Source: a virus. From it: a DNA stretch of 64,000 nucleotides. A program made the position numbers and the translations under genes. Every line of letters starts with the position of its first letter. Position 1 is the first letter of the stretch. The notes under the pieces were generated by a model. It searched no databases. It saw only the letters and a list, made by a program, of their open reading frames with translations, and had not been told where the DNA came from. Shown in pieces: positions 4,417-60,367 of the stretch. The stretch is from IMG/VR virus record IMGVR_UViG_3300032516_000009, positions 1-64,000 of that record. One strand, 5' to 3'.

Positions 4417-4445
4417 TCAGAACTATTTAGTTATTAAAGGGGTAC

Positions 4446-7400: not shown

Positions 7401-8957
7401 CTTGGGTAAAGATAAATGGATTTTTGACATCGGCACATCGGTGTGGAAATCTATGGCTGCCCCTACGATTGGGTGTGTGTTATGTGTGGCTAAAGAATGA
7501 GCAATATAACTCTTCTGATCACCTTCTCCTTTAACTTCGAAATTAAAAACCGATCCTTCATATTGGATAACATTCAAACTTTCTATCCTATGGAGAAACC
7601 CTTCCTTAGTATGAATTATATACACCCTGGTTGAATCAACAGAGTACTTACCATCCACCCAATTTGCATATTTGGAAAAAACATCAAAATATCTTCCAGG
7701 AAATGAAACATAATGAACGGTCCCTGCGGGAAAAATTCTTCCCCCCGTAACGCGTTCTGGCCGGTAATATTTAGCGTTATAGGCTGGTATTTGAAGCCTA
7801 CGTAACATATGGAAGACTTGTGACGCCAAGTCCTCACTCATAGTATCTGCTGTGTACGAGTTATCCGTAAAACATCCATCACCATTCCAGTATGTCCCAA
7901 GGAATTCTAACATCTGCTCTGGATTTGCATGAATTATATCTTCATGTAATCTCTTTTCATGCGAACCACGACCAACATATTTTTCACAAAATCTAGCAAA
8001 CCCAACCCCGTCACATATGACCCTAGTCGTATTCCTAGATGGATCGGTGTAAATACGAGCTTTCTTCTTGAAGGCTTCTTCATATAGGGAAGAAATCTCG
8101 ATCGCTATCGTCTGGGATTCGTCGATAGATAGGGAAAATTCAACCCCGCGAATGACTCCAGCACTTCTATAAGACAAAGACCCCTCAGAAGCGTAATACC
8201 CGAGAAGTCTCAACTCTGCCCTACTTAAACCACAATCTTTAGTATCCCCAAGCCACGGAGATACAATATAATCCCCAATCTTCAAATCTTTGGCATATAC
8301 ATATTCAGGCGTTCCGAAATTCTGCCCTTCACACTTAGTCCTCTGACAAAGTGAATTTTTACCACGCCTACATGCCCAAGTAGAAGATGGATATTTACAG
8401 TCTACTTTTTCGGCCCGCAGTGTATAAAACGGATGATTTCCAGTCGCTTGTATTTCAGATTGAATTCCTCTAACCCTCATACTAATAATATTATCTTTTA
8501 TGTCATGTTTAAAGGTCTCTACTACTTCCGTAATATTCCCAAATCCATTTGGGATTTTATCTCCGACCCTAACATCTTCAATGGGTACGGTAGTTCCGTC
8601 CCAAGTAACCACTGGTGCTCCTGGCACCCAACATGTGTACCAAAAACGAAAAAGTTCTCTCTTTTCACGTTCGCTCTGCGGTAACTCGAGAAAGTCCGTT
8701 GAAAGTTGGGGACTGTAGAAATTACTATCAGCCGATAATATATTTCCATATCCTGAACCGCCAACACCACCATATCCAGCAGCTGATCCACTGAATATTC
8801 CAGCACATGAAGCCATACGAATAGATTGCGCGGCCTCACGGCGAGCCTGCTTTTCAAGCTTAGTAAGGTTGGTCTTTGCTATCTTCTGATCGTTAACTAC
8901 TTTGATGGGCTGACCAATTCTAGTTTGCCCTTTTTTCCCATCATTCTTCCTAGTCAT
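4446..8957 (-). CDS. Portal protein containing two inteins (mature about 608 aa)
   Basis: Extein motifs HPIVGAAIDFHTDVP, EYWLHGNAF, RGISILER/CLRTLIYQDKLRQAQ; downstream of terL. Confidence 0.8.
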   Translation of the reverse strand: MTRKNDGKKGQTRIGQPIKVVNDQKIAKTNLTKLEKQARREAAQSIRMASCAGIFSGSAAGYGGVGGSGYGNILSADSNFYSPQLSTDFLELPQSEREKRELFRFWYTCWVPGAPVVTWDGTTVPIEDVRVGDKIPNGFGNITEVVETFKHDIKDNIISMRVRGIQSEIQATGNHPFYTLRAEKVDCKYPSSTWACRRGKNSLCQRTKCEGQNFGTPEYVYAKDLKIGDYIVSPWLGDTKDCGLSRAELRLLGYYASEGSLSYRSAGVIRGVEFSLSIDESQTIAIEISSLYEEAFKKKARIYTDPSRNTTRVICDGVGFARFCEKYVGRGSHEKRLHEDIIHANPEQMLEFLGTYWNGDGCFTDNSYTADTMSEDLASQVFHMLRRLQIPAYNAKYYRPERVTGGRIFPAGTVHYVSFPGRYFDVFSKYANWVDGKYSVDSTRVYIIHTKEGFLHRIESLNVIQYEGSVFNFEVKGEGDQKSYIAHSLATHNTHPIVGAAIDFHTDVPMSKIHLSLPKGADNKRNKQILHFYEQMCKKVRLFQVLYDATHEYWLHGNAFLFCEDHDMTHEIPEDIIADVKQEEVGEIDYAGRPIKKTEITKNDKPIEEAFKNIKKYVQEHYKGWQRIQILPPEQIKLEVFQYTNRTTMQLIPSEKDRLVVLRSQQQSDPEADRIAEDIPEQIKENLLNGQPIPLNTSPYDDFLCSSFCHHLAHKKSAYDDRGISILERCHLPGTEIIAKRDGLICQIPIEELDPEIDEVLGGSGKWRKFDWGTRPVNEEVCSVNVYKTGHLINMTQDHIVPVLRGNEILEVPAKNIFSGDYVQMVSVPLMETYKLVDLKNFIQNLGDQEYIARKTGAAVSMSVEVIDETESDIVVKYSKKETDPRKVGYYAKLQNVYDWILSLPVECQITRQEFCDKFKFHPTDFKKIRTNLADRGAIITSKREGSETIFIFTPIPDQIVVNEDRNITRICKKELVLDGNSGYLIGYFLGDGWVKINGNTADYGQFGICYNSKSARSCASAKHLELILDKLGIKWSETEHTVPSSMRNIYGYDDIFTRWSALNFGHTKEDKHLPSWIWNAPKEFLFGILRGIYDSDGAVSVKKTGVVTVQLAMSTKQLVDQLQILMLSLGLPVSRHFHKSRNTKMPNGSITMECRPLYQLALSDRPSVRQIFESGFMAKAIDVELEFNSGWGVKHLVHDGKLFFKVRKNTLIPYGGPVYSLNVEEDHKFYSCSVLLNNCLRTLIYQDKLRQAQTSIASRAMTPKRVVWADKMSEMDVEDLRNQVDQALIDPDFTIVTNFEVHWDEIGARDRLLDLATEYEITNKLLYIGLRITESMLTGESTYSGERIHLDVMNTMYLLYRETVATLVEDNLFAPVAEKKGFFEIDEFDNKVLLYPKLKFTRLALRDNSELQDFMFNLYQKGSLPISYIYELINVDPHDASAELRRDLFTPRDSTYNELVRALLTAVGDKLGSDSNIAKKIADDLGLELKEEGDRFGSESGK
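5241..6770 (-). mobile_element. Intein 2 in portal (510 aa, LAGLIDADG endonuclease)
   Basis: LER|CHLPGT...MTQDH...IGYFLGDG...LRGIYDSDG...VYSLNVEEDH...LLNN|C. Confidence 0.9.
7479..8633 (-). mobile_element. Intein 1 in portal (385 aa, LAGLIDADG endonuclease)
   Basis: WYT|CWVPGA...ATGNHPF...LGYYASEGS...FLGTYWNGDG...VFNFEV...ATHN|T. Confidence 0.9.
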
Positions 8958-8979
8958 GTTTCACCCGAATCTAGAAGTT

Positions 8980-9369
8980 CTATTTAAAAGCTGGCTCCTG
9001 TTCAGTAAATTCAGATATGATGTCTTGTTTTTTATTATCAACCAATTTCATATATTCCGACAATTTCTGTATTTGGCCATAAGCGACCAATAACGTCTGA
9101 GCTATCCATTTGATTCTGAATCTATATTTTAGGTAAGAATCATATTTTATCTTGGTGTCAAAATTAACAGCCATTAACAACACTTCCGATAAAAGCGGAG
9201 CGATGATATTGATTTTAGCATTAATATCACTATATGCTTTTAGAAGTGCTTCGATATCATTCTGTCTGCTCTGCTTCTCTCGTTTTTCTTGTTCCTTCTG
9301 CTCTTCTTGTTTCTTTTGTTTATTCTTATCCTCTATTGGTTTAGATTCAAGTTTTGCATCATTAGCCAC
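8980..9369 (-). CDS. Hypothetical coiled-coil protein
   Basis: 129 aa ORF in the packaging operon. Confidence 0.5.
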   Translation of the reverse strand: MANDAKLESKPIEDKNKQKKQEEQKEQEKREKQSRQNDIEALLKAYSDINAKINIIAPLLSEVLLMAVNFDTKIKYDSYLKYRFRIKWIAQTLLVAYGQIQKLSEYMKLVDNKKQDIISEFTEQEPAFK

Positions 9370-9378
9370 GGGATAACC

Positions 9379-9633
9379 TTACTGATCAGATATTTTTTTG
9401 ACCGATTTGACGCTAATTTTATCTTTGAAGGCCGCTTCCATAGCTATATCTAGAATACCAACTTGATCCATGTCCCCATCCATCAATCTTTTCCAAGATC
9501 CACCTAATTTAGAAAAAAAACCTATGGCTGAGTATATTTCCTCGTCAGATGGAAACTTCGAAAGGTTCCATGAATTGTCCAGGATCTCTTTAATTACGCG
9601 GTATGCCGCAATATTCTTTATTTCAAGATCCAT
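9379..9633 (-). CDS. Hypothetical protein
   Basis: 84 aa; tightly packed, co-oriented. Confidence 0.5.
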   Translation of the reverse strand: MDLEIKNIAAYRVIKEILDNSWNLSKFPSDEEIYSAIGFFSKLGGSWKRLMDGDMDQVGILDIAMEAAFKDKISVKSVKKISDQ

Positions 9634-9657
9634 TACATAACTGTAAATATAATAATC

Positions 9658-12600
9658 TTAATTCCCTCTTCTTAATAAAAGAGGGACTCTTCGTTCTTTG
9701 GGCATCTGTCCATGCATTCTAGCTCTGATCCTCTGAAATTGGTGATACCCAATCGGATTTTGAGCTTGTCTCTGGGAAGTATGGGTAATGATCGTCGCGT
9801 CCAGAGATCCAGGGTTGTTTCTGGTGTATTCAACGGCCAATGATATGCTACGTACTAGTGCGTCAGATACATCATCATGCTTTCCGGCTATACTCGGAGC
9901 TTCAACAACTGTAATATTCTTACCACCGGATCTCGATTGAAGCTCGAGTAACTCACTAATCATGGGAGAATGAAGTTTCCCTTTTGCGTCAAGTAATTTT
10001 GATTCCGGCAATGGATAGTCATATATTCTAAGTTGCCTGGCATACATCAACATTTTCGCCATTTGATATATTTGGGACGATTCATTAACACTAAAATTCT
10101 TCATTTCAAATTGAGTTAACCCGCTCTTATGCAATTTTTGTTCAAATATTGGACCGGCCCATTGATCAAACACACCCTTCAATATAAAGAATCTTCTAGA
10201 CAATGCAACAAACCAATTAATTATTTCATCTATATCTATTCGCTTAGAACCTTGAAGTTCATCGACATACGGAACAATTGAATTAGTTAAATGAGGATTT
10301 GATTCCTTCCAACTTTTGCCAGCATACCACACTTCATGGTATGCCGTTTCTATTTTGCCATTTTTGATATGGGTTAAAGCTATGGCAGTCCCATCTTTTA
10401 CTATTCCAAAATCAACCCCAGCAAAGAACGGTTCCCGCGGTCTGCCGCTAAATATTGGTTTCAGATTGTATGATATACAATCGGTTAGATCACTATGGTT
10501 TTCTATCCAACCTCTAACCCGATCTGAGAAACTTCCGCCATGTTCAGTATCAAAGGACTTTGGATCTTTGGCATATTCAACTGAATAATATTTATTAAAC
10601 AGAGTAGGATTTATTTCCCATGTTGGAGCCTGAATCATCAACATATTAGAAGATGCTTCATCTTTAGTTAAAGATTGCTGATATAAATTATAGAAAAAAC
10701 CCTCACGCGCGTCTGGTGATGAAATAGAAATAATGCGTCCTTCAGGTGGACCTAATGCAACATGTTTATTATTAGGATCCTTGGGAGAAAATTGTCCTAT
10801 ACCAGGCGTGATAGCCTTATATACACGTTGTGCGCTTGAATTATGATTAGTAAATCCTTGAGCCACATATTGACTCCCGTCAGGGATCATAAGATCGGCG
10901 ACCTCAGCTTCGCTCTCATCAATTGATGTTACCTGATCCCAAAAATAGTTGATATGACAAATTTCATCCAACTCGTCAATCGATTGTTTATCTGCACAAA
11001 GTTCTCTACCAAGTTTTACTATGCGTTGTGCAGAATCATAAGATATGCGACTTCTACGGTTGAAATCAGATGAACTAGAACAAAGTCTTATCATCCTGGT
11101 GCGGGCATCATTTCCTTTCGACAAAGTTTCTGCTTTAGGAATAGATTCTAAAATTTTTCTAAGTCTATCGTATTGATGTGGAATTACATTTGACGCATCC
11201 CGCCCACGCGAACACCCAATGTCCAACAAGTTCCCCTTGCGTTCCGTAATAAACCCAATTTCGTTACGGAATGTAATGCGAGAAGTATAACCAATCACAC
11301 GCACAATGTAGTAATACCGACTGTATTTCTTATTCCACTTATGTAATATACTAGAAGTTATTCCAAAATTTAAAAGCAAAAGTTGTATTTCCGATGCTAG
11401 TTTTCTGCTCGCAGTAGATGCTGTTATCGTGTCGCCTTTCCTCTCCAAGCCGCCATCTGTTTCAAAAAAACCCCTAAGAAATGCTGCTACCACATTCTTA
11501 GGGCTCTTGAATATTACCCATGGCACAGATTTAGTTGATTTTGTTACATTAAGCCGGTAGCCTATACGATTAAGAAAAGCCCTGAATAAAATAGAGTTTT
11601 TAGTCACCATCCATGGAGAAACTTCACATGTGTTGTGTCCATGCGGTGATTTATGACGACAAGCGTATGAACTAAAATACCTTGAAAAATGTGCTTTTAC
11701 ATATGACAAAAATTGTTCACAACCACCAGTAACTTGAATAAGACCACGAGTCTTTCCAGATCTCCATGTTCCATCACCAACTAATATTCCAAGAAATTCA
11801 CCTAATCCAACATCAACATTAGTTGGTATCTTTATTGAATCGCAACTACTGTTACTTATGGGTTTAATATCGGAACAGTCATAGTATTCACCTGGCCACA
11901 AATTAGTTGAACGATTTATACCAATAAAATCACCAAGTTTAATGTTGCTAACATATTTCCAAACAATATTACCATCAGGTGACATAACCTTCAAACGATG
12001 TTCTGGCGTAGGTTCGATCGAATAACGTCTCTTTGTCGTTAGTCTCCTAGTTTTTTGATACCCGCCATAATACACATGAGTTGCAAATGCCAGAACACCA
12101 GATTCCTGTATTACCCTTATGGGATCTATACTAGTCCATCCAATTTTAGATCGATCAACGTGATTATTAGACAGTATTTCTTCAAACGTTGTTAACCCAG
12201 TATTCGTTTGAATATTACTAAACACTTGTTCACATTTGCCGTCGTCTACAAAGAATGCAAGCTCGTCTAGTATGACGCATATTGTTCCACGACCGCGAAG
12301 ACCTTTGGCAATCGAACTCTTGAAAGTAGATATGATCGAAGCTCTGCGTCCTGACCCTTCCCCGTATTTCCTTTTATCATAATCGGTTTGAAACTTCATG
12401 TATGTCTGAGTATCATGAGTGATGGACGATTTAAAATAGTCAACTTGATTGATATATCCAGACATCTCTCCATATACGATAGACGCCTGTTCTTTATCAT
12501 TAGCTATGCATAATACACGGATTTCATTTACTGTTGATATACCATAATGTTCTTGAGGACAACCGCGTCTCAATAACTTATACAATTCATATGCGGCAAT

Positions 12601-12999
12601 TAACGCAGCAAGAGTGGACTTCCCACTACGTCGGCCGAGTACCAGAACTAACTCAAATCTTGATTCAGAATCCTGTTCCTTGATATTGCATCTTCCCTGT
12701 TCATATAAATAACTAAGGTACTCTTTTTCTGTGAATTCATATTCAATTTTATCACTAAATGGATCCCTGATTTTTATGACTTTTGCAACATTATCTAATG
12801 GCAATCCATAGTATAGCTTAAGTATGAATTTTTGCGCCGGAAACAACCCATATGGTAATAAATGAAATCTTTCTATGAATTCAATAATCGTGAGAAAATC
12901 TGGGCTACCGTCCTTATTACGCCGAGATGCCTTCTTATCAAGAAGGTTATCTATAACTCCCGTTAGTTTGCTTTTCTCAACTTTTTCTGTACTCGGCAT
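9658..12999 (-). CDS. terL: Terminase large subunit containing an intein (mature about 648 aa)
   Basis: Walker A GRRSGKS, Walker B ILDE, ISS coupling motif, nuclease GVDFG...D and KHDDVSDA. Confidence 0.92.
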   Translation of the reverse strand: MPSTEKVEKSKLTGVIDNLLDKKASRRNKDGSPDFLTIIEFIERFHLLPYGLFPAQKFILKLYYGLPLDNVAKVIKIRDPFSDKIEYEFTEKEYLSYLYEQGRCNIKEQDSESRFELVLVLGRRSGKSTLAALIAAYELYKLLRRGCPQEHYGISTVNEIRVLCIANDKEQASIVYGEMSGYINQVDYFKSSITHDTQTYMKFQTDYDKRKYGEGSGRRASIISTFKSSIAKGLRGRGTICVILDELAFFVDDGKCEQVFSNIQTNTGLTTFEEILSNNHVDRSKIGWTSIDPIRVIQESGVLAFATHVYYGGYQKTRRLTTKRRYSIEPTPEHRLKVMSPDGNIVWKYVSNIKLGDFIGINRSTNLWPGEYYDCSDIKPISNSSCDSIKIPTNVDVGLGEFLGILVGDGTWRSGKTRGLIQVTGGCEQFLSYVKAHFSRYFSSYACRHKSPHGHNTCEVSPWMVTKNSILFRAFLNRIGYRLNVTKSTKSVPWVIFKSPKNVVAAFLRGFFETDGGLERKGDTITASTASRKLASEIQLLLLNFGITSSILHKWNKKYSRYYYIVRVIGYTSRITFRNEIGFITERKGNLLDIGCSRGRDASNVIPHQYDRLRKILESIPKAETLSKGNDARTRMIRLCSSSSDFNRRSRISYDSAQRIVKLGRELCADKQSIDELDEICHINYFWDQVTSIDESEAEVADLMIPDGSQYVAQGFTNHNSSAQRVYKAITPGIGQFSPKDPNNKHVALGPPEGRIISISSPDAREGFFYNLYQQSLTKDEASSNMLMIQAPTWEINPTLFNKYYSVEYAKDPKSFDTEHGGSFSDRVRGWIENHSDLTDCISYNLKPIFSGRPREPFFAGVDFGIVKDGTAIALTHIKNGKIETAYHEVWYAGKSWKESNPHLTNSIVPYVDELQGSKRIDIDEIINWFVALSRRFFILKGVFDQWAGPIFEQKLHKSGLTQFEMKNFSVNESSQIYQMAKMLMYARQLRIYDYPLPESKLLDAKGKLHSPMISELLELQSRSGGKNITVVEAPSIAGKHDDVSDALVRSISLAVEYTRNNPGSLDATIITHTSQRQAQNPIGYHQFQRIRARMHGQMPKERRVPLLLRRGN
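10840..12234 (-). mobile_element. Intein in TerL (465 aa, LAGLIDADG endonuclease)
   Basis: DDGK|CEQV...TPEH...LGILVGDG...LRGFFETDG...VADL...TNHN|S. Confidence 0.9.
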
Positions 13000-13586
13000 T
13001 ATACCGTTTCCATCCTCTTTTCCCAGTCTCTCATGTCAGCTTTCATCTGCTGGAACACCAAATCTATTAAATGATCTGGGATCTGACATTTAACCATAGA
13101 TTCATGAAAAAATTCCATCCAAATTTCAAATATCTTTTGTATTCTGGGAGATCTAAGATCAAGTCTCTCAGCAAGAGCAGCTTCCTTCCGTTTCAATAGA
13201 AGTTCAGCCATACTCCTAAGACTATTGATCCTCGATACCGTGTAATTCGCGGTATTCTTTCCCTCTTTTGCCGCTTTTCTCCGTTCAAATTTTAGATGTG
13301 ATACTTCTTCAGCTATTTCAACAAGTACCGCATCGATAACAGCGGCAGTCGATCCATCCTCTTTAACTACTTTAAGTAACTCTTGTTTCTTGACATATTT
13401 AATACGTTCTTTTACTTCCTCAGCAACTGAAATAGGATCTATTATTTCCGGAGTGGGTACATTACCAACTTGTCCTATTATACTGTCTACCCCTATTTCC
13501 CCAGTATTTATCCTGTCTCCGGATGGAAGTGTTATAATTTTTCCTTCCTTCTTATTTGAAGAGTCTGGATCCTTGGGTATATCCAT
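12999..13586 (-). CDS. Probable terminase small subunit
   Basis: 195 aa, helical; overlaps the terL start by 1 nt. Confidence 0.5.
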   Translation of the reverse strand: MDIPKDPDSSNKKEGKIITLPSGDRINTGEIGVDSIIGQVGNVPTPEIIDPISVAEEVKERIKYVKKQELLKVVKEDGSTAAVIDAVLVEIAEEVSHLKFERRKAAKEGKNTANYTVSRINSLRSMAELLLKRKEAALAERLDLRSPRIQKIFEIWMEFFHESMVKCQIPDHLIDLVFQQMKADMRDWEKRMETV

Positions 13587-13627
13587 ATATGAGAGATCCT
13601 GTCTCTCATAAACAATACTATTTATAG

Positions 13628-15559
13628 TTATTTACGACTATCAATTGTAATATCTGGACCAGCGGCTTTGGCCCCATTCAAATCAATCGGTAGTTCTGAA
13701 GCTAATTCATATTTCACAACAGGGTCCTCGACAGGAGCCCGTTGAATGTTCATCGATGCTTTTCTGAGTTCGATGGCTTGTTCCCTGACTTCGTCAGGTA
13801 TTTGTCTAATCATTCTCTTCGAATATCTATTGCACCAACTTGGTGCTGTTTGGTGAAGGCACCCGGTGCACGCCGATGCTACTAATAGATATTGGGCCCC
13901 CTTCTTCCTAAATTGTTTTGATCCAGCCAGGCATCCTTTGCCATAATCAGAATAAACAGACGGATCAATAAAGAAAATTCCCTGAATACCATCATTTGAA
14001 GCTAATTGATGTCCAACTTCAGGTACTTTTCTCAAATCCTCCCGAGAGTATTTTTGCAATACTGCCATTTGTAAAGCTTTTCCGTATAAGCCGGTATTCA
14101 TTGTCCTTGATATGAATAACCAAACCTCCTCTGGATTAACCTGTGTTGCAGTTGTTTCTCTACCGGGGTCCCCATAATGGATGGACGCTTTGGGGGCTAA
14201 TGGAACTTGAATCGGTTTCTGAGAGACAGCCGGCTTAAATAAATTAACTTGTGCAGTCAATTTCTTCCAATCTGCATCCTGCGGTAGATTCGATATTACT
14301 GATTCAAATTGAGATGCAGAAACCCTTTTTTCATGCACAGCTCGCTTACAAGCTGCGACGAACGCCTCTTTCTCAATCGGGATGATATAATTGACTACCG
14401 GAGCAATCTGAGCTAATTCAGCATACGCGGGTGCATTACCAACAGAGGCTCTGGCTAAGAAATAATTTGGAGATAATTTTCTGTTATTGGTGAAATTTAA
14501 TGCTGCTTTACATCCGCCCAAAGCATCGACATCTATATATGTGTGCCCAATAATTCCAAATTCTTTTGATAATTTCTGAATTTCTGGATCAGAGGATGCA
14601 GATATACTACGATGATCTACCTTCCCTTCCATCATCTTCTTGGCAATCAACAGATATGTAGGACTAGGAAGTTTGTCTGCTTTATTAGCAATGGCATTTC
14701 TAGTCCAATATGAAAGGTATTCTTCCTCACCAATAGTTGGTTTGATTGGAGTGGGATGGTGTTGAATAGTATTCGGTGCGGTCTCCCGAGTCCTTGGTTT
14801 ATTTAGAAAAGATGCTTGTAGAATCTGGCGAATTTCTGATTGATCCCGATCCATGTCGGTTAAAAATTGTGAATCTATTCTTGATTCACTAGCCAGCCTA
14901 GTGGCATAATGAGCAAACATTTTCTTATTATACGGAACTGAATTCACCAGATACTTCTTAAATATGCCACATTTATTCTGCTTATTGTGGATGCATCCAA
15001 CGCAGGCTTGTTTAGCTATAACAAATACAGCATTTTTAGCTGTCTTATCTACAAATTGTTGAATTTTACCACCTTGGGCACATCTGGCGAAGTTCTCTGA
15101 ATTTATGTAGACATTTCCAAGTAACCCTCTTTCATTTAATACTTCATCTACTATGGGTTGAGCAGCAGTAAGAGTCTTGGGATCAAATTCATTCTGCAGA
15201 TTTGCTTGAATTTGTTTCGACGTAAAACCCGACATCACATAGGCAGCGACTCTATCTTTGATTGCAGTTAAAGCAGTTGGTCTAAAAGAGGGGGCATTGC
15301 GCTCCAATGGGTTAGAATTAACGATATTATAGGGCTTCAGTGGTACTAACGAGGGAACTCTCTCATCCCCTTCCTGAGAGAGAGCTGCAGATAATTCTGG
15401 AATACTATCCAAATTTTGCTGGGGAAGTGCCTCCGCTTTCCGATACTCCTCTACATCAACATCGAGCCAAGAATAATCAGAAATCGGTCCTTGATTATGG
15501 AGAATATTCGTAATATCCCCGAGACCGGCCTGTTGCATATCGGGAAGCTGCTTAGCCAT
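13628..15559 (-). CDS. Putative virion protein with three internal repeats and Cys clusters
   Basis: Repeats ERGLLGNVYI / EFGIIGHTYI / NDGIQGIFFI; two CxxC..C clusters. Confidence 0.55.
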   Translation of the reverse strand: MAKQLPDMQQAGLGDITNILHNQGPISDYSWLDVDVEEYRKAEALPQQNLDSIPELSAALSQEGDERVPSLVPLKPYNIVNSNPLERNAPSFRPTALTAIKDRVAAYVMSGFTSKQIQANLQNEFDPKTLTAAQPIVDEVLNERGLLGNVYINSENFARCAQGGKIQQFVDKTAKNAVFVIAKQACVGCIHNKQNKCGIFKKYLVNSVPYNKKMFAHYATRLASESRIDSQFLTDMDRDQSEIRQILQASFLNKPRTRETAPNTIQHHPTPIKPTIGEEEYLSYWTRNAIANKADKLPSPTYLLIAKKMMEGKVDHRSISASSDPEIQKLSKEFGIIGHTYIDVDALGGCKAALNFTNNRKLSPNYFLARASVGNAPAYAELAQIAPVVNYIIPIEKEAFVAACKRAVHEKRVSASQFESVISNLPQDADWKKLTAQVNLFKPAVSQKPIQVPLAPKASIHYGDPGRETTATQVNPEEVWLFISRTMNTGLYGKALQMAVLQKYSREDLRKVPEVGHQLASNDGIQGIFFIDPSVYSDYGKGCLAGSKQFRKKGAQYLLVASACTGCLHQTAPSWCNRYSKRMIRQIPDEVREQAIELRKASMNIQRAPVEDPVVKYELASELPIDLNGAKAAGPDITIDSRK

Positions 15560-16583
15560 TAACCTTCTCCAATTTCCTAATTACCCAAGAAAGACGAGAA
15601 GCGCATCGTCTGAGTACTATAGCCTCGTCGGATTCATAATTACGCTGACAAGCGATGTGAAGAATCCGTTCCTTCGTTTTCTTTAAGTTTGTGTCTGAAG
15701 CTTGTTTAGTAACTGGGAACTGATCTAACACATCAGCAATAGTTATCTTATGACGGAGTTTCAAACAACGGATGATATCCGAAGCCAAATACTGTCTATC
15801 ACCGAGTCCCTCATCCTGAAGGAAAGCTGTGATACAACGTCTAGTTATGTTAGTTTTTCCACATTTCCGTATGAACGCAGAGGTTAATTCGCCAACCAGG
15901 TCAAGATCAACAGCTGTTTGATGCATGTTCCGTCTCCTTATAATACCATCAGACGCCATAGTGTATCCACCATGACCTGGTTCGTTCGTTTTCTTGTAAT
16001 CCGCATTTTCTTTAAAATCTTCAGTCGGAAATCCCGTTGGAACAGATTGATCCTGAATAGTAAATCCAGACCAAAAATTCCCTAGAGCCCCGAGCCAGTC
16101 ATCCATCAAGGCACTATGCGATGGTTGATTTGGTAAAGATTCGCTTGCATACGCTCCAGTGTCCTCATCAGGCCATAAATCATCAAATGATTTTGACTTC
16201 CCCAGCTTCATATCATCATAATAATCAGATCTGGCTGATACATTATCTTCATCGGTTGGTAATTCACTCTTTGCAACGGACGGAACTGGATTAGTTTTAG
16301 TGTCGTCTTCCATACGCCTTCTGGTAGGCGGACGTTCAGGATCTCCAGGGAGTTCAGCAGAGGCGTGTTTTCCTTGCGATGTGTATGACTGAGGGTATCC
16401 TAATAATCTATCCGGCCCGAATGGATCTAATGGACCACCGTTATCCGGCAAACTTTTCCCCGAATTACGTTCTTCGTCGTCCTCGCCATGCAAGTCCGAA
16501 TCACTTTGTCCATCATATGTGCCTATTCCAAAGTCTTTTACCGCTTTGGACTGGGCCGACTCCGTTGGCATGAGAGATGGCAT
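15552..16583 (-). CDS. Acidic putative virion protein
   Basis: 343 aa; translationally coupled to both neighbours. Confidence 0.5.
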   Translation of the reverse strand: MPSLMPTESAQSKAVKDFGIGTYDGQSDSDLHGEDDEERNSGKSLPDNGGPLDPFGPDRLLGYPQSYTSQGKHASAELPGDPERPPTRRRMEDDTKTNPVPSVAKSELPTDEDNVSARSDYYDDMKLGKSKSFDDLWPDEDTGAYASESLPNQPSHSALMDDWLGALGNFWSGFTIQDQSVPTGFPTEDFKENADYKKTNEPGHGGYTMASDGIIRRRNMHQTAVDLDLVGELTSAFIRKCGKTNITRRCITAFLQDEGLGDRQYLASDIIRCLKLRHKITIADVLDQFPVTKQASDTNLKKTKERILHIACQRNYESDEAIVLRRCASRLSWVIRKLEKVNG

Positions 16584-17869
16584 TAGATATCAATCTCCCA
16601 TAACGGATCCATAGTTGGTCGTTTTGGTTTTTCTCTTAACCCATCCGGCAATTCGGGTTTATTATGAGCTTTCATCCATTGAATATCAGCGTCCGATAAT
16701 CCACGAGCATAGTAATCCAGATTCTTTTCATTATTGGACCCTGGGAGCCATGAATAATTATTACTATTGAGATCAGCAACTCTAGCACTCATTTTATGAA
16801 TACTGGACCATTGCTGCTTGTATACTGAGCTGTCCCCCAAATTTGGAGGATATGAATCAGTTACTCCATCCGCATTAGCTTCCTCTCCTTCATATATTCT
16901 ATCGTATTGAGAAAAACCTTCACCTATTGGATCATCAGATGGACGTTCGTTTAACTCTGTCATGTACCCAGGATCTTCCGATCCCTCTCCAGGACCGAGA
17001 TGCTGGACTCTAGGACCAGGAAGTGTATTAGTATCTATCGCCCCAGTAGCAACTCTATTTTTTAGCTTATCCACCGCTCGCTTAATTACACTTGAGTAAC
17101 TACCATGATCAGGAGTCACTGTATGCATAGCCATTTCAGATGGCGTCTTTCCAAAGTAATAATCATTCGCATCAGTTTCTGGCAATTTAGAAGCCGGTTC
17201 CGGGGTTGATACCGGCTCTTCCTCGTATGCTTCAGATGGCTTTTTCTTTTTAAGAGCTGATTGCTTTCCCCATCCAACCCCAATATTATCATCTTCGTCA
17301 GCGTCTTCTTCTTTCCCAGGGGATACCACCTGAGGATTCATTTCTCCGGCGTCAGGATTTATGACTTCACTAAACTCTCCATCTTTCTTAGGAGAAGTTT
17401 TTTCAAATTCTTGCTGTACGTATCCTTCAGGATTTGCTTTGACTTCTTGAGCTTCTTCTACAATTTCCTCGGTATCGGATTTATTCGATACAGTGGCCCA
17501 ATGATCTGCATTTATTTCGTCATGCAATGTGTCAGTAAATGATGAAATGAATTCAACTGCCTGGCTCAAGCCAGTACGCATGTCCTTAATGGTTTGGATG
17601 TATCCTCTACCACCCAATAATCCATCAGGACTGAATTCCGATGACGGCATTTTTGAAAATAATCTCAAAGACGCCATCGCATAACTATGGGCTCGTTCAG
17701 TGGCCCATAGTATTTTAGCTAAATTTGTAAGGGTATTAGGGTCCCACTTAAATTTTGTAACACGTAGATCTCGGCGTGGCGGTCCCGAGTCTTTATGAAA
17801 GGTGATCTCTCCGGCCGTTTTGATTCTACCGGTCTGGATCATACGGGTAGCTATTTTATGTAGATTCAT
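16583..17869 (-). CDS. Putative internal head protein (likely start MNLHKIA)
   Basis: Acidic, disordered C-terminal half; KIA/KTA/RVA motifs. Confidence 0.5.
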   Translation of the reverse strand: MNLHKIATRMIQTGRIKTAGEITFHKDSGPPRRDLRVTKFKWDPNTLTNLAKILWATERAHSYAMASLRLFSKMPSSEFSPDGLLGGRGYIQTIKDMRTGLSQAVEFISSFTDTLHDEINADHWATVSNKSDTEEIVEEAQEVKANPEGYVQQEFEKTSPKKDGEFSEVINPDAGEMNPQVVSPGKEEDADEDDNIGVGWGKQSALKKKKPSEAYEEEPVSTPEPASKLPETDANDYYFGKTPSEMAMHTVTPDHGSYSSVIKRAVDKLKNRVATGAIDTNTLPGPRVQHLGPGEGSEDPGYMTELNERPSDDPIGEGFSQYDRIYEGEEANADGVTDSYPPNLGDSSVYKQQWSSIHKMSARVADLNSNNYSWLPGSNNEKNLDYYARGLSDADIQWMKAHNKPELPDGLREKPKRPTMDPLWEIDI

Positions 17870-17937
17870 GCGGCTTCTTCTCTTCCAAATGTGTGCAAAC
17901 AAATTCCATTGTGAATAAATTTGCTATAGTCACCATT

Positions 17938-18216
17938 TTAACTCTCTCTTATAGGTCCATCATCGTCACATACTAAACGTTCAATGTAATCCCCTTCATC
18001 ATCCCTGCCCAATTTCCAAAAATCTTGTTTTGATAGTCTGACTAGTTGATCATCAGAAATAAATTCAAATCCGGACAATTGATTTAAATCAGCTATTCTT
18101 ATCTTACCACCCGTCCTAAATTTCATGGTACTGGTAGCGATCCGGGATCGAGGATTGAAAAATTCATCGATCGAACTTGAAGAGAAACGAATATCTTCAA
18201 TCTTTAGATCACTCAT
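17938..18216 (-). CDS. Hypothetical virion-module protein
   Basis: 92 aa; strong GAGG/AGGA SD. Confidence 0.55.
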   Translation of the reverse strand: MSDLKIEDIRFSSSSIDEFFNPRSRIATSTMKFRTGGKIRIADLNQLSGFEFISDDQLVRLSKQDFWKLGRDDEGDYIERLVCDDDGPIRES

Positions 18217-19252: not shown

Positions 19253-19516
19253 TCAACTTTCTTGGACAGAATATACCGTGCAATCCTCAGAAGAATGTAT
19301 GTAATCGTCCTCATTCCATTGCATTCCACATTCTTTACAATGATATTTGAATACGGGCTCATGCGAGAATGCCTTTCGAGCAATTCCTGTGTAGTCAAGT
19401 TTTCTTATCGGAGCGACCATGGCCTCAGCAAGTTTAATTCTGCTCGCTGAGTTTAAATACTCAGATATTAATTTTCCTTTTAATTTATCATCAATTTCGA
19501 TACCGTTAAACTTCAT
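19253..19516 (-). CDS. Small protein: capsid-N-terminus-like segment plus CxxC-H-C module
   Basis: LISEYLNSASRIKLAEAMVAPIRKLDYTGIARKAF + CKECG..W..H..C; paralogue of 19513. Confidence 0.65.
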   Translation of the reverse strand: MKFNGIEIDDKLKGKLISEYLNSASRIKLAEAMVAPIRKLDYTGIARKAFSHEPVFKYHCKECGMQWNEDDYIHSSEDCTVYSVQES

Positions 19517-19743
19517 ATGTCCATTACAAAGTATACGCTACATTCTTCTGTAGAATGTTTATATCCTTTATCGTTCCATCCCATACCGCATTCTTCGCAA
19601 ATATACCTATACGGGTAATCCACGCGAGGACCACGGATAGGTTGAACCATAGCTTGAGCCAATTTCATTCTACCTTCTTTAGTCTTCAACGCATTCCTTA
19701 TTAATTCAACCTTCTCCTCGTTAGTCATGTCATCATTACCCAA
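19513..19743 (-). CDS. Small protein: capsid-N-terminus-like segment plus CxxC-H-C module (start may be MTNEEK)
   Basis: KVELIRNALKTKEGRMKLAQAMVQPIR..DY + CEECG..W..H..C. Confidence 0.65.
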   Translation of the reverse strand: MGNDDMTNEEKVELIRNALKTKEGRMKLAQAMVQPIRGPRVDYPYRYICEECGMGWNDKGYKHSTEECSVYFVMDI

Positions 19744-20156
19744 TCAACCTTATGTAGATCACAATCTAATTTGGTGTGCACTAAGTGAGAGTCCCAGTTT
19801 GTGTACCCACAATCTGTACAATGGAAACCTATTTTAATGGGTTTCGCAGCAAATAAATCATCAGGTAACAACCAACCTTCCACTGGTAAACAATAACCAA
19901 CAGGAATATATTTGGAAAAGAGGATGCTGATACCGAAAAGGGTCCCGAGCAACCCTATTTGAGTTAACTCTGCATGAGTGTTTATATCAAATGCGTCATG
20001 TATCATGCATATTTGTATTGCATAGGCATCGGCCGGATTGAAATAAATAGCAATGGGCCCCCATTTACCACCATCAGACCTGCGTGAGAAATGTGAGTAT
20101 TTCTCACGCATTTTAATTATAAATTCAGTAATATTTTTGCGAGTTGCTCCGCTCAT
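19725..20156 (-). CDS. Small protein: capsid-C-terminal-like segment plus CxxC-H-C module
   Basis: IYFNPADAYAI...FDINTHAELTQIGLLGTLFGISILFSKYIPVG + CTDCG..W..H..C. Confidence 0.6.
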   Translation of the reverse strand: MSGATRKNITEFIIKMREKYSHFSRRSDGGKWGPIAIYFNPADAYAIQICMIHDAFDINTHAELTQIGLLGTLFGISILFSKYIPVGYCLPVEGWLLPDDLFAAKPIKIGFHCTDCGYTNWDSHLVHTKLDCDLHKVDWVMMT

Positions 20157-20160
20157 AAAT

Positions 20161-20670
20161 TCATTCTGACATTACTGTATTAACAGTAATGTCATTAACT
20201 ATTTGGAAGATTTCTTCTGGAGAAATGCCGAGTTTCATAATAACTCTTATCGTTTGATAAGCATATTTTAATACATGGGATCGCAAAAGAATTGAAACAG
20301 GAAAATGTTTAATTTTGTCCGGAGTCATATCAACTCTGACTTCTCCGGTTGATCTTCTAGTTACAAAACCATTGTGACTCGATATCATATTGTCGATATC
20401 ATTAAGAATGATATCGTCGATATCATTAAGAATGATATGGCGTTGTTCAACGCCAGGGATATGATCGAATATTTTGATCCATTTCCCTGGATAACGCAAG
20501 GCCTGGTTTAAGAAGACCACGGCCATTAAATGAGATCTACCGGCTCCCCTATAGTTGTCGATATTTAATAACCATTCAACTGATGGTAAATGTGTTAATT
20601 GACAATCGCTTAATTTGGATACCTCATTAAAATATAAAGTCAGAGCATCCACCCTAGATTTTACATTCAA
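20161..20670 (-). CDS. Small protein with a terminase-like P-loop fragment and VxxVM C-terminus
   Basis: RGAGRSHLMAVVFLNQALRYPGKWIKI; ends TVNTVMSE. Confidence 0.5.
   Translation of the reverse strand: MNVKSRVDALTLYFNEVSKLSDCQLTHLPSVEWLLNIDNYRGAGRSHLMAVVFLNQALRYPGKWIKIFDHIPGVEQRHIILNDIDDIILNDIDNMISSHNGFVTRRSTGEVRVDMTPDKIKHFPVSILLRSHVLKYAYQTIRVIMKLGISPEEIFQIVNDITVNTVMSE
20392..20438. repeat. Tandem 24-nt duplication; each unit is palindromic
   Basis: gtcgatatcattaagaatgatat x2 (encodes IILNDIDD/IILNDIDN); ATATCATT-aag-AATGATAT inverted repeat. Confidence 0.85.
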
Positions 20671-20709: not shown

Positions 20710-21162
20710 TTATCTTTTGTTTAAATTCTTCACCATTTGTTTTGATAAATAAGATGGATCGCCCCATAATTTTTTAGTCCTCTTAGAAGCTTCTAAACAT
20801 TTACCAGCATCTTGCCAAGCTCTCTTTGAAGCATTGGTAACAGCGGTGCGGAATGTGGGATCTAGCCACTGTTGCTTTGAAATGTTTGAACGATTTTTCC
20901 TGCGGTCTTCCGACCATGCTTCAATAACACCGTTCCGATGAATTCTTTGGTACTCTGGCTCTTGATGTTTAGCCTTCATACCACACGAGATACATCTATA
21001 AAACCCAACTCTCCTAATTGTTCTGACGACGGAAGCTACCTTTAAAGATTGCTCCATCCCGCAAGCACAAATAACTGTTATAACTGAAGAACCGATTAAT
21101 TTACCTTCAATTTTTGACTTAACGATAGACGCAGGGATGCCAAATTGATCAATATTATCCAT
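20710..21162 (-). CDS. Truncated homing-endonuclease-type DNA-binding repeat protein
   Basis: Cys motifs plus W-x-D-P-x-(Y/F) helical repeats, as in the N-terminus of 25034..26722; no nuclease domain. Confidence 0.55.
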   Translation of the reverse strand: MDNIDQFGIPASIVKSKIEGKLIGSSVITVICACGMEQSLKVASVVRTIRRVGFYRCISCGMKAKHQEPEYQRIHRNGVIEAWSEDRRKNRSNISKQQWLDPTFRTAVTNASKRAWQDAGKCLEASKRTKKLWGDPSYLSKQMVKNLNKR

Positions 21163-25033: not shown

Positions 25034-26722
25034 TCACACTGTTTTATATAACACAAATTTTATCTTCTCTTTGCCCAAAACTTTAGTATACCCGAATTCC
25101 TCAGCGTATTCGCGTTCTTTCTTCCCCATTTTCACTGCATGTGTATATAGTGTCTTTTTATGCATCATCCACCCATTCTTATCAATATAATAGTAATCAG
25201 GAGCAATGGTACATATTTGTTTCCAATTACTCGATCTGTATATAGATCCAGTATGTCCATACGTCAAATCAGCAAATGACACCAGAGTTGATATTTTATT
25301 GAATGATTCAAATACCATGTCCGAACATCTAGATACAAACCAAGAAGCAAAATTCTTCTTGTGTCTTCTAGGATGTATACAGAATCTATCTAATTCTAAA
25401 ACTTCAGAAAATTTTTTCGATATTGATGTAGCTACTTCTTTTCTAACTGGTGTTGAAAATTTACAAATAGCTAATAACTCATCACACGCATACGCACCAA
25501 ATATGATCTTGGCAGCTCTACCATATTGTGCATAGTGAAATGAATTTAAAAACTCACGAGATTTATTAATATTTGTTATTTTAATTTTAATATCGTTGAA
25601 GTTAAAATCTACAAGTTTCTCTTCACCACGACCGTATAATTCATTCATTATCTTTTGTTTAACAATAAATGGGTTTAGGAAATCACGTTCGTGTAAATAT
25701 ATAATTCTAGACGATGGACACGATTTTTCCAGGTAAGAAAACTTGGCAGCGTCATTCCTCTTAGCATTTGGAAGAGAATGCCAGTATTCCCCTTGACATT
25801 CTATATATACATCAAATGATGGTATATAGAAATCAAACACATATGGACCGATATTCCTTTGTTCAACGCTGTTAACATTCATAATATCAAGTAATTTTTT
25901 GGTTATAATTTCTATACTAGAACGTTTACCAGATAATAAAAACTGAGAACGCACTTTAGCAAACTGATCACGAAATTCATTATTCTGCCATTGTCTTCTG
26001 GCTGATTCAACTTTCTTCAATTTATATTCTGGATTTGCCCACAACCGTTTTATGGCTTCACTTTGCGTTTGTCTATACTCTGGATCATTCCACAATAAAT
26101 AAGTAATACTTCGTTTATGATCCCTGCTGTTATCTCCTTTGAGTATTCCTCTAAGATGATCACCGAATTCAGATCTCCATCTATTAATCATTATATTGCT
26201 CTGTTTAGACCTTCTTTCCTCATCCCACGATAATTTACTCAACTTCTTCATCTTAGATGAGTATTGAGGATCATCCCATAATTGTTGCATAGCTAATGAA
26301 TATTTACTCGAATAATCCTTCTCTTTATGCATCCTCAGGGCCGTATTTATGATTTTTTCTTTATATCTATCATTCTCCCATAACTGTCTGGATGCAATAC
26401 TCTGTGTATTTCTACGTTCTTCATCCCATACTCTTTTCTCACTATTTATGATATTTGCTCTATACTTATCATCCTCCCACAACTTTTTCATGTTACGAGA
26501 TCTGTTTGATATGATTTCCTCTGATGCAGATCGACATTTACTACACAGACAATCTCCGAATTTTTTGACCGCCAATTTGACACAACGAACACTTGTTTCT
26601 CGCTGTGTAGTACAAATCCGGCAAGTCAAGAGTACTCTTGACTTGCCGGATTTGATCTCCCCAAATTTCTTTATGGTGTCGTTTAGATCTATATGTTGGA
26701 ATACATCATCCATATTTATCAT
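25034..26722 (-). CDS. Fusion: Trp-repeat DNA-binding region + Vsr/DUF559 endonuclease + Mom-like GNAT domain
   Basis: LWxDxxYR repeats; YVFDFYIP..IECQGEYWH; EFLNSFHY, ELDRFC, VSFADLTYGHTGSIYRSSNW. Confidence 0.7.
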   Translation of the reverse strand: MINMDDVFQHIDLNDTIKKFGEIKSGKSRVLLTCRICTTQRETSVRCVKLAVKKFGDCLCSKCRSASEEIISNRSRNMKKLWEDDKYRANIINSEKRVWDEERRNTQSIASRQLWENDRYKEKIINTALRMHKEKDYSSKYSLAMQQLWDDPQYSSKMKKLSKLSWDEERRSKQSNIMINRWRSEFGDHLRGILKGDNSRDHKRSITYLLWNDPEYRQTQSEAIKRLWANPEYKLKKVESARRQWQNNEFRDQFAKVRSQFLLSGKRSSIEIITKKLLDIMNVNSVEQRNIGPYVFDFYIPSFDVYIECQGEYWHSLPNAKRNDAAKFSYLEKSCPSSRIIYLHERDFLNPFIVKQKIMNELYGRGEEKLVDFNFNDIKIKITNINKSREFLNSFHYAQYGRAAKIIFGAYACDELLAICKFSTPVRKEVATSISKKFSEVLELDRFCIHPRRHKKNFASWFVSRCSDMVFESFNKISTLVSFADLTYGHTGSIYRSSNWKQICTIAPDYYYIDKNGWMMHKKTLYTHAVKMGKKEREYAEEFGYTKVLGKEKIKFVLYKTV

Positions 26723-27260
26723 TAGACATTAAACATTTATGCATATCAATCAGTGAGTCATTCCATTGTCCATTGCGCTCTGCTACTTCAGGAAATTCCT
26801 GTAGCGATGGAGCTTGAACACGCCATTTCATCTCCCCATCTTCTTCCTTCTCTTCTCCAATACATCGTGTTAGAAGATGATCAACAATGGCAGTTCGCTG
26901 TGTTTCATTATAATCATTCCATACTTCTAAAGCGATCTCCACCACAAAATCATATCCAGTAAGAAACGCATATTTACCAGACATTTTATATACATTGCCA
27001 GGTATAAGAATCCCAGCTCGCTTAGCCGCTCTATTCCTACAAATATATCTGATTTTGGCATCAGCAAGATGACTGTGGAATTTTGGTATTAACTTTAAAG
27101 CACGCTGTTCAGCGGCTTCAAAATCATCAAACAAGAGCGGAATCGGTTTAACTTTGTTCGGTTTCTCAGGGGCACCGTCACTCATATACCCTCCTACAGA
27201 AATGTCAAAACCTGTTTGTTGAAATAATTGACGAATGTCGTATCTCCGACTCCACGCCAA
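26706..27260 (-). CDS. Phage metallopeptidase-like protein with a degenerate zinc motif
   Basis: HSHLADAKIRY, YDFVVEI...W...QRTAIVDHLLTRC, LQEFPEVAERNGQW. Confidence 0.65.
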   Translation of the reverse strand: MAWSRRYDIRQLFQQTGFDISVGGYMSDGAPEKPNKVKPIPLLFDDFEAAEQRALKLIPKFHSHLADAKIRYICRNRAAKRAGILIPGNVYKMSGKYAFLTGYDFVVEIALEVWNDYNETQRTAIVDHLLTRCIGEEKEEDGEMKWRVQAPSLQEFPEVAERNGQWNDSLIDMHKCLMSNDKYG

Positions 27261-29856: not shown

Positions 29857-30962
29857 TGATGAACCCTCATGCTTTGCAAATAGTGTAATGACTTGACAGC
29901 GGCCCCCTCTCCTTGAGACACTTCAAGAATAGTAGGTGTTTTTTGATGATGGAACCTTAACACCACTATTTTTTCTATAAATCCAATCATATTGACCAAA
30001 ACATTGATTGGAAAATCCGCCTTTATCTCATCTCCTTTTACAAATTTAACCGGAAAATTTGATATTTCATCTTGTCCGAAGAACAATTTCATTTGTCCAT
30101 CCTGAGCATGGATCCCCAGTCGTTGAGTTCCCTCGATCACTAGGGATGCCCATGATAAATTCTTAGCGAATTGTTCTCTGTCAATAAATACTTCGGTTTG
30201 AAAATCTGCCGAGTCCAGGATGGTTAGAGCAGGTTTCGGGGTTGTAATCCTACCGAGGATAAGTGTAGACCCCGTCTCAGGATCAGCCACACATAATTTT
30301 TGCTCATTACAAGACAAATCGATCGTTGAACCTAGACATTTTGCACAAAATGCGCGAATTATTGGAATATCAGAACTAATAATAGATAAATCAAGTTGCA
30401 TTCCATCTAAAAATGCAATAGACCCATAATATCTAGCATTGGAAACCGCACAATTTTGGTCCGAATAGAAATGAATTTGATTTATGCGCATATCCTCTTC
30501 TGTCTTGGTCTCTTTTATCAGAGCGGAACAAGATATTTGGCGCAATAGGTTATCAAATAAATTTTTGTCGATAGATGATTTAGTTGCATCACCCAGACCG
30601 ACACTTGGGTCTGGCATCTTTATTCTAACTATCTTCTTGGGAATTGAGGCCCGTCTGATTTGATCTCCCCCCTGCATTTTTACGGATAAAGTCTTATCGT
30701 TCACGCCAATCGATACTGAATCTAATTCAGTATCGAATAAAGCAATTCTATCTAAACTAACATACGTTTCATTCAATTCAAAATCAGCGGGAGACGATTC
30801 AGCCGGGATTACTACTTTAATATATTTTCGTTTATCTGCAGATGATATGACCATTGATGAATTATCAAATTTGATGTTGAAGTCTCCTATCTCCGGTTTT
30901 ATGATCCTTGCCAGAGATAACCCATCCTTTAATTTTTTCGGATCAAAGATAAATTCGGCCAT
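29853..30962 (-). CDS. dnaN: Probable DNA polymerase III beta sliding clamp
   Basis: 369 aa; three-domain clamp-like beta/alpha periodicity; dnaX, holA and holB in the same region. Confidence 0.6.
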   Translation of the reverse strand: MAEFIFDPKKLKDGLSLARIIKPEIGDFNIKFDNSSMVISSADKRKYIKVVIPAESSPADFELNETYVSLDRIALFDTELDSVSIGVNDKTLSVKMQGGDQIRRASIPKKIVRIKMPDPSVGLGDATKSSIDKNLFDNLLRQISCSALIKETKTEEDMRINQIHFYSDQNCAVSNARYYGSIAFLDGMQLDLSIISSDIPIIRAFCAKCLGSTIDLSCNEQKLCVADPETGSTLILGRITTPKPALTILDSADFQTEVFIDREQFAKNLSWASLVIEGTQRLGIHAQDGQMKLFFGQDEISNFPVKFVKGDEIKADFPINVLVNMIGFIEKIVVLRFHHQKTPTILEVSQGEGAAVKSLHYLQSMRVHQ

Positions 30963-30975
30963 GACTCTTCAACTC

Positions 30976-31269: not shown

Positions 31270-31277
31270 GAGATCTC

Positions 31278-59767: not shown

Positions 59768-60367
59768 TTACTGATCCATTACATATTCAGTAGCATCATT
59801 ACTATTATCTATGAACATTGATGATATGACACTAGTCATGAATTTTCGATATCTGGGTTGCTGATTATGTTTTCTAGTCGGACTTCTACCAGACATCGGA
59901 TATGAACGAAATGAAAGGACTTTTCGTTTTGAACTTTTTTCAATACCAACTCGTCTATATTCAACTGCTATATAAATGAATTTATGCGGGATGAAAATCC
60001 GCTGACAGTATGGATAAGATGGAGAACGAATTTTTCGCACCTGAATGAACTTTTGAGCAAGAAAATGAATTTCTCCAGTAAATGTTCCTTTATATGAAAA
60101 AGTCATATTGCATCTGAATGTTTTCTCAGATCTCGAAATATTATTTATGTTGACCAAAAATGCGCGCTTGCGGAACAGCACCTTCATTATTGAAGTGAAT
60201 GGCATTACTGCATAAGACGGGATGGTGTCTTGTATTTGATTAAGAAATGGTTGAAATTCATCAAAACTGATAAAAATTGTCTTACCAAACGCTGCCATTG
60301 CAGTAGATATATTAATTTTTTGCAGGCAATCCGTCGCCATTGCAGCTTCACGTACGGAAGTTTCCAT
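59768..60367 (-). CDS. Hypothetical protein ending EYVMDQ
   Basis: 199 aa; TGTAAATT motif 7 nt before ATG. Confidence 0.55.
   Translation of the reverse strand: METSVREAAMATDCLQKINISTAMAAFGKTIFISFDEFQPFLNQIQDTIPSYAVMPFTSIMKVLFRKRAFLVNINNISRSEKTFRCNMTFSYKGTFTGEIHFLAQKFIQVRKIRSPSYPYCQRIFIPHKFIYIAVEYRRVGIEKSSKRKVLSFRSYPMSGRSPTRKHNQQPRYRKFMTSVISSMFIDNSNDATEYVMDQ

Follow-up and report, generated by a model that had tools for sequence, protein, structure and literature searches.

In plants and animals, microProteins act as dominant-negative competitors, one interaction segment of an oligomerising protein being encoded as a separate small gene; they are known in eukaryotic transcription-factor networks. 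Short address peptides common to otherwise unrelated proteins are also known in phages, as in the T4 capsid targeting sequence of IPI-III and Alt, which is N-terminal, is found on a handful of proteins and is cut by the head protease. Encapsulin cargo peptides, and the helix shared by the 80alpha scaffold and SaPI1 CpmB, are C-terminal helices that dock unrelated proteins on an HK97-fold shell, and the degrons and adaptor tails of AAA+ proteases (ssrA, ending in LAA-COOH; the SspB tail) are, like vWA-MoxR systems, read at a free C-terminus by one hub. Here we analyze a cluster of four adjacent small genes, mini-genes A to D, in a stretch of 64 kb (the window) that forms the beginning of the IMG/VR virus record IMGVR_UViG_3300032516_000009 (record length 110,922 bp). 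As a preliminary description of this DNA had claimed, all four genes lie on the minus strand, at 19253-20670, and end in VxxV[M/Q]xx directly before the stop codon. Its guesses that A, B and C are pieces of a major capsid protein (MCP) were right, and its assignment of D to a terminase found no support. Literature searches found no published account of this design, and neither a phage capsid microProtein nor one with a shared address tail.

The phage is an uncultured giant of the phage-G lineage. The nearest relatives of its large terminase subunit (TerL) are those of the 485-kb uncultured phage LR745208.1 (43% identity) and of Tunturiibacter phage Tunturi_5; these two phages, Bacillus phage G and Bxz1-like (cluster C) mycobacteriophages have one MCP family, phrog_2522, in common, the structure of which is that of phage G gp27 (PDB accession 6WKK; HK97 fold). 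We built a hidden Markov model (HMM) of the MCP from six sequences (295 positions) and ran it against the 176 gene calls of the record. The model recovered B (E = 5e-11, model positions 5-43), A (E = 1.5e-10, positions 7-56) and C (E = 8.8e-6, positions 179-229) and nothing beyond them, the next best E-value being 0.5. The preliminary description had likened the start of two of these proteins to the MCP N-terminus of Bxz1-like phages and part of the third to a C-terminal capsid segment. Both assignments held: a profile of the 28-member mini-protein family aligned with residues 1-53 of phage G gp27 from residue 1 of both (E = 1e-10), and the match of C falls within the C-terminal half of the MCP, in its A-domain.

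The mini-proteins are much smaller than the protein that they resemble. Residues 1-53 of phage G gp27 align with A and B from their first residues and its A-domain segment aligns with C, so that each mini-protein holds ~40-50 MCP residues, the remainder being finger and tail. Each covers model positions 5-56 or 179-229 of 295 and cannot form the HK97 fold, which when complete comprises N-arm, E-loop, P-domain with spine helix and A-domain and takes ~280-330 amino acids (aa). We conclude that A, B and C are capsid fragments and not capsid proteins; as small proteins derived, by sequence, from a segment of a larger oligomeric protein, they resemble microProteins. A and B are tandem paralogues (E = 3e-15) set apart by the first E-loop strand, 12 residues that A has and B lacks; long and short forms both occur across the family. 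The N-arm of A is 44% identical to the MCP N-terminus of LR745208.1, and phmmer aligned C with residues 187-237 of the MCP of the same phage (E = 3e-4). In an Atlas structure search with C, nine of the 10 nearest models were phage capsid families. Word-based homologue searches with the 87-, 169- and 143-aa proteins returned only self-matches; a protein identical to the 143-aa C was found on a 323-kb contig.

Searching 1.84 billion representative proteins with a HMMER profile of A and B gave 223 matches at E<=1e-3. About 30 of these were whole proteins of 65-95 aa with the A/B architecture, encoded on short contigs from unrelated metagenomes; one representative, P0003, is the 71-aa form of B. 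The other matches mostly covered only the N-terminal half of the profile and were the N-termini of phrog_2522 MCPs: nine of 10 longer matches that we checked fit phrog_2522, one of them (P0066) over nearly the whole model (E = 1.8e-48) and eight over its N-terminal part only. The profile of the 28-member family likewise found the MCP N-terminus in LR745208.1, phage G, Tunturi_5 and the related genomes G002-G005 (E = 1e-9 to 1e-17). All family members keep both modules, and they always end exactly two residues past the [MHLQ] position of the tail. A complex predicted for residues 30-330 of the P0066 MCP with the mini-protein family scored 0.15 against a mark of 0.32, a result that speaks neither for nor against binding.

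Between the capsid segment and the tail of A, B and C lies the CxxCG..W..H....C module that the preliminary description had seen in three of the genes; it is in exactly these three and in no further open reading frame (ORF) of the 110,922-bp record. The pattern Y-x-C-x2-C-G-x-x-W...H-x4-C has the ligand spacing of C2H2-like fingers, C-x2-C-x9-12-H-x3-5-[HC], with a preceding aromatic residue. The three Cys residues are invariant in 28 of 28 family members and the His is present in most. The AlphaFold2 model of A made with the 28-row alignment (predicted local distance difference test score, pLDDT, 80) folds the module as two short strands and a helix, residues 76-86, that reaches the last residue of the protein (pLDDT >90), a beta-beta-alpha shape. 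The tail of A lies within this helix as the continuation of the finger helix. Nearly all Foldseek matches of the model were C2H2 fingers, at weak E-values (>4), and the best Pfam score was 15.4 bits for zf-C2H2_3, against a cut-off of 27. From its sequence pattern and model, the module is a predicted C2HC beta-beta-alpha zinc finger. An IMG/VR scan with the finger pattern gave as its sole match the zinc ribbon of a lambda-type terminase (L006), and matches to several stretches of one protein (P0011 and others) were rejected as repetitive proteins that form no clear family.

We found that the ending shared by the four mini-genes goes far beyond chance. The motif VxxV[MQ]xx before a stop codon ends eight of the 176 gene calls, where its frequency inside proteins predicts 0.05 (P = 5e-16), and is absent from the ends of all 470 non-gene ORFs; with the looser form [VIL]xx[VI][MQH]xx, the count rises to 16 of 176 (0.44 expected, P = 3e-20). 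With shorter ORFs counted, which added two, about 20 of 178 proteins in the record carry a copy. The codons of the conserved V, I and M positions vary (GTA, GTT, GTG and GTC among them), which places the constraint on the protein and not on the DNA, and we therefore dropped a promoter, terminator or coupling signal as the cause of the tail. Inside proteins the motif occurs at background frequency, so the free C-terminal position is part of the signal.

The tail was also found in relatives of this phage. An IMG/VR scan with the sigma-like protein encoded next to the cluster recovered 37 related loci, complete genomes among them. In the complete 436-kb genome G002 the looser motif ends 105 of 659 gene calls (1.5 expected, P = 1e-155), with the consensus [IV]-V-x-x-V-M-E-S and often two acidic residues before it, and in the complete 393-kb genome G003 it ends 63 of 577. 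The more distant LR745208.1, a negative control, has it on 0-1 of 667. The preliminary description had tied the tail to capsid and terminase fragments; its presence on the capsid fragments is real, and it is in no way special to them, since it is found clade-wide on 11-16% of proteins. These tagged proteins are small (median 102 aa) and grouped in arrays of small genes, and their size and isoelectric point gave no clue to function. Their turnover is fast, as a homologue in G003 was found for no more than 11 of the 105 in G002. Seven tagged orthologue pairs between the two genomes have 29% identity in the bodies of the proteins and about twice that, 57%, in the last seven residues. Together, these data demonstrate that the tail is real, position-specific and under selection: an 11-residue portable C-terminal label, [DE][DE]xxVxx[VI][MQH]xx-COOH.

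Unlike the T4 signal, this label stands at the extreme C-terminus, marks ~100 proteins in each genome and lacks a conserved protease-site motif. The encapsulin consensus GSLxIGSLKG has no sequence likeness to it, and any binding of the tail to the MCP is hypothetical. The consensus V-M-E-S ends in two polar residues (E-S), not in a non-polar LAA-like tripeptide as in ssrA. Inteins or intron read-through as the source of the tail were rejected, as the tails lack intein block motifs and the record has intact TerL and RNR genes elsewhere. A clamp-binding tail was rejected as well, as the motif is absent from the ligase and the sigma-like protein. One further tagged protein, of 153 aa (genome positions 88326-88787; L036 4326-4787), gave a phmmer match to the Walker-A region of the LR745208.1 TerL (E = 0.029) and a Pfam match to an RNR barrel (E = 8e-4). 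Neither match is confirmed, and nothing was found for this protein by BLASTP against the phage's own RNR, by the lineage TerL HMM or in the PDB.

Tagged capsid fragments are not confined to this cluster. In G002, six tagged proteins match the MCP HMM at positions 7-41, 9-64, 86-120, 175-231, 227-250 and 261-286, one untagged protein matches it at 160-232, and an array of mini-genes with finger and tail lies at 268-272 kb. We found no TerL fragments in the clade. The metagenome contig Ga0209287_10000003 (L007) has, at ~230-18000, about 15 small ORFs with W-x-[AS]-D-D-P-W near the N-terminus, and in three of these the sequence runs on into an MCP segment (E = 1e-15, 8e-12 and 4e-8). This tag equals the L-P-A-D-D-P strand of the MCP and may itself be derived from that protein. 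On the contig Ga0172381_10012130 (L009), eight small frames at 5129-8154 end in R-Y-Y-Y-[IL]-Y-[GA], and four of them hold MCP segments. Judged by their sequences, these two unrelated contigs thus carry MCP pieces on tags other than that of this clade.

The four mini-genes are spaced by two ATGA stop/start overlaps and one 4-nucleotide gap (Table 1), and we conclude that they are translationally coupled with intact frames. The slot that they occupy, between the sigma-like gene and a gene for a 301-aa protein, varies among relatives. It is empty in two related loci (L046 and L070); a third (L066) has at this place a homing-endonuclease-like gene of 615 aa, a gene of 184 aa and a single orthologous 85-aa N-arm and finger gene that ends in VVLVHET; in this phage the slot holds a 150-aa relative of the L066 endonuclease-like gene and the four mini-genes. 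The 150-aa protein also resembles the N-terminal repeats of a 562-aa HNH/Mom-like protein encoded at 25034-26722 (E = 2e-10), and the island may travel with a homing-endonuclease-like gene. A family-profile search found no such mini-genes in phage G, Tunturi_5 or LR745208.1, which have the same capsid type, demonstrating that the mini-genes are not needed for making it. The promoter-like TG-TAnnnT site near 21168, to which the preliminary description had linked expression of the cluster, carries no weight because the region has fewer consensus matches (nine) than its shuffled versions (12).

Table 1. Positions of the mini-genes, their modules and other genes named in the text, in window coordinates.
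Feature	Position	Strand	Description
Mini-gene A	19253..19516	-	87 aa; MCP N-arm and first E-loop strand, predicted C2HC finger, tail ...EDCTVYSVQES
MCP N-arm module of A	19352..19495	-	residues 8-55
Predicted finger of A	19280..19345	-	residues 58-79; C-x2-C-x10-H-x4-C
Tail of A	19256..19288	-	last 11 residues
Mini-gene B	19513..19728	-	71 aa from ATG at 19728; MCP N-arm only, predicted finger, tail ...EECSVYFVMDI
Mini-gene B, alternative start	19513-19743	-	76 aa from TTG at 19743
Mini-gene C	19725..20156	-	143 aa; MCP A-domain segment, predicted finger, tail ...KVDWVMMT
MCP A-domain segment of C	19893-20048	-	residues 37-88
Predicted finger of C	19761-19820	-	Cys/His pattern
Mini-gene D	20161..20670	-	169 aa (163 aa from internal start); tail ...TVNTVMSE at 20164-20196
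Walker-A-like RGAGRS stretch of D	20419-20571	-	residues 34-84
First gene of variable island	20710..21162	-	150 aa; without tail
Fifth tail-bearing gene of window	59768..60367	-	199 aa; tail ...ATEYVMDQ

For mini-gene D, which the preliminary description had read as a terminase Walker-A fragment, we obtained only sub-threshold hints, and these point to the packaging ATPase of phi29. Its RGAGRS stretch departs from the Walker A pattern GxxxxGK[ST] in having Arg for Lys. There was no match to D in Pfam or PHROGs or with the lineage TerL HMM, and BLASTP against the phage's own TerL gave nothing significant (E >3). The best PDB matches were to phi29 gp16 around the Walker A box (E = 0.33-0.4), and the nearest named Atlas cluster was the phi29 packaging ATPase family (feature score 0.85). 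As these phi29 matches are leads and not findings, the terminase reading is unproven, and D is best described as an orphan. AlphaFold2 without an alignment gave an unusable model (pLDDT 41), and no relatives of D were found in G002 or G003. D also contains an in-frame tandem duplication, at about 20392-20436 of the window, in which IILNDID occurs twice.

Starting from the genes, their homology, the selection acting on them, the tail statistics and the synteny, all of which are observed, we tentatively propose, with a confidence that stops just short of even, that the mini-proteins are accessory proteins under selection that each mimic a single MCP interface and carry a clade-wide address tail, and that they probably serve in conflicts, be it with the host or with rival phages. 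On this proposal the three genes would be old, selected chimeras, in which an MCP segment (two N-arms, one of them extended by the first E-loop strand, and one A-domain segment) sits on a C2HC finger whose helix would run into the 11-residue tail. Each mini-protein would keep one MCP binding surface, which may compete for the partners of the MCP by a microprotein-like mimicry; any dominant-negative action, as in the eukaryotic cases, is hypothetical here. The tail, in turn, would hand all tagged proteins to one common reader. As targets of the conflict, host capsid sensors would be our first guess and the assembly of rival phages our second. Both seem to us likelier than a function in the phage's own head, because relatives with the same capsid lack the genes, the island is variable and the small genes evolve fast.

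Several of our results weigh against this proposal. D has no assignable origin, and most tagged proteins match nothing else in their own genome and are not detectable fragments, so the function of the tail need not concern mimicry. The phage's own MCP is off the contig, no full-length MCP having been found with the MCP HMM among the gene calls of the 110,922-bp record. Comparison of the mini N-arms across 37 aligned columns gave identities of 17-39% with the MCPs of their own clade and of 37-58% with those of phage G and P0066, in what is a small sample. They are thus no nearer to their own clade's MCP than to distant ones and are not a faithful copy of their own capsid protein; these identities point to an old, separate lineage that keeps family-consensus residues and not to recent copies. 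Finally, the predicted zinc finger could serve nucleic-acid binding instead of mimicry.

We considered several other explanations for the cluster. It is possible, if doubtful, that the mini-proteins are immune decoys, in that MCP pieces made before the capsid protein would occupy CapRel-, Lit- or Avs-type sensors without activating them, with the tail serving to pass the bound sensor on to a protease or to keep it where it is. It is established that CapRel and Lit are set off by capsid proteins. The accessory status of the genes and their location in a variable island, the tiling of the MCP by the G002 fragment set, and the fast turnover suggested by lineage-specific tags would all fit such decoys, but terminase and portal fragments were not found in the clade, the mini N-arms do not track the MCP sequence of their own clade, and we found no ClpP or S41 protease encoded by the phage. 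We regard a role in the phage's own head as unlikely. The pieces might then dock on the MCP or scaffold as minor or internal procapsid proteins, or act as chaperones of sticky MCP interfaces, the capsid being very large, with the tail as a head-loading signal. In HK97-fold proteins it is usually the N-arm that binds the scaffold, the cluster adjoins genes that are syntenic with the head-gene region of LR745208.1, and encapsulin cargo peptides and scaffold helices are likewise C-terminal. However, relatives with the same MCP type do without these genes, ~100 tagged proteins per genome is far above the known cargo of any head, the tail is absent from all proteins whose genes lie between the portal and the end of the contig, and the tagged genes are concentrated in small-gene arrays away from the structural module.

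Two further explanations dispense with mimicry or with function altogether. The tail could be a timing degron or the end of a small helical fold, with the mini-proteins acting as nucleic-acid-binding regulators and the N-arm as an exapted helical domain that mimics nothing. The likeness of the finger to DNA-binding C2H2 fingers, the modelled prolongation of the finger helix by the tail and the position of the cluster after a sigma-like gene are as expected of regulators. We nevertheless consider this improbable, as many proteins without a finger carry the tail in the same register to the stop codon, several MCP segments are used and not the N-arm alone, and other lineages have MCP pieces without any finger. 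By far the least probable explanation is that the mini-genes are debris, without function and left behind where illegitimate recombination, or the traffic of homing endonucleases, had copied pieces of the capsid gene. The island does open with a homing-endonuclease-like gene, and the phage is rich in intein-like and homing-endonuclease-like inserts. Against this, the frames are intact and translationally coupled, the family has ~30 members in unrelated metagenomes with their zinc ligands kept and their C-terminus fixed, an orthologue lies at the same site in L066, and the same design arose with three different tags. The case for purifying selection on the mini-genes is already strong.

If the tail addresses proteins to a common reader, a candidate is found in the tag-rich regions of the relatives, where a MoxR-like AAA_5 ATPase gene lies near a DUF2201 vWA/metallopeptidase gene (G002 25877-27001 and 29900-31387, locus L102; G003 ~346.4-349.6 kb). 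This pair, which recalls vWA-MoxR systems, is present in the tag-positive G002 and G003, and no homologue was found in the tag-negative LR745208.1. The link is a co-occurrence in three genomes and nothing more, and we treat it as a lead. In its most speculative form, which we think improbable, the VMES-type tail would be the address of a phage protein-handling system, the reader of which docks at the free C-termini of ~100 fast-evolving small proteins and might be the MoxR-like AAA+ ATPase together with the vWA/metallopeptidase protein; the capsid mini-proteins would be the decoy arm of this system, tiling the capsid protein and blunting capsid-sensing immunity or poisoning rival heads.

Returning to the proposal of tagged interface mimics, its confirmation would mean that giant phages address proteins through a system that they themselves supply, in which a single short C-terminal label marks at least a tenth of the proteome, and that they keep under selection small genes that each show a single piece of the capsid protein. 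Neither a C-terminal addressing system of this kind nor single-piece capsid genes were described in the papers that we searched. Both parts are directly testable, as the fragments can be located in a known capsid structure (6WKK) and the tail is an 11-residue peptide that can be used as bait. The occurrence of the design in three lineages with three unrelated tags points to a general strategy of large phages and not to a curiosity of one genome.

CheckV estimates the record to be 26% complete, which implies a phage of ~400 kb. Its genes include an intein-bearing large terminase (9658-12999), a portal (4446-8957), clamp loaders, RNR, ligase and helicase. An IMG/VR scan with the phage's own TerL gave no matches. 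The stretch from portal to clamp loader is collinear with LR745208.1, and the phage's own MCP is therefore expected ~5 kb past the left contig end. The preliminary description had suspected this gene to the left of the window, and the relatives of TerL and the gene order of LR745208.1 indicate that it is probably there, just outside the contig.

Other features of the record were noted in passing. An insert of ~450 aa in TerL (1113 aa), spanning residues ~270-715, gave matches to helicase-like proteins of phages; a 68-aa stretch is common to this insert and the 1503-aa portal protein (E = 1e-5), and a RecD/Dda-like helicase (33433-36750) holds a LAGLIDADG endonuclease segment. The inserts in these three core genes are probably inteins. 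Twelve tRNA genes lie at 53388-60826 of the window in a GC-rich stretch (~50% compared to 38% elsewhere). Five otherwise unlike proteins, encoded at genome positions 39617-40093, 60833-61465, 79723-80154, 102491-103327 and 105635-106063, have their first 36-40 residues in common (44-72% identity), and this N-terminus may be a second shared module of the phage.

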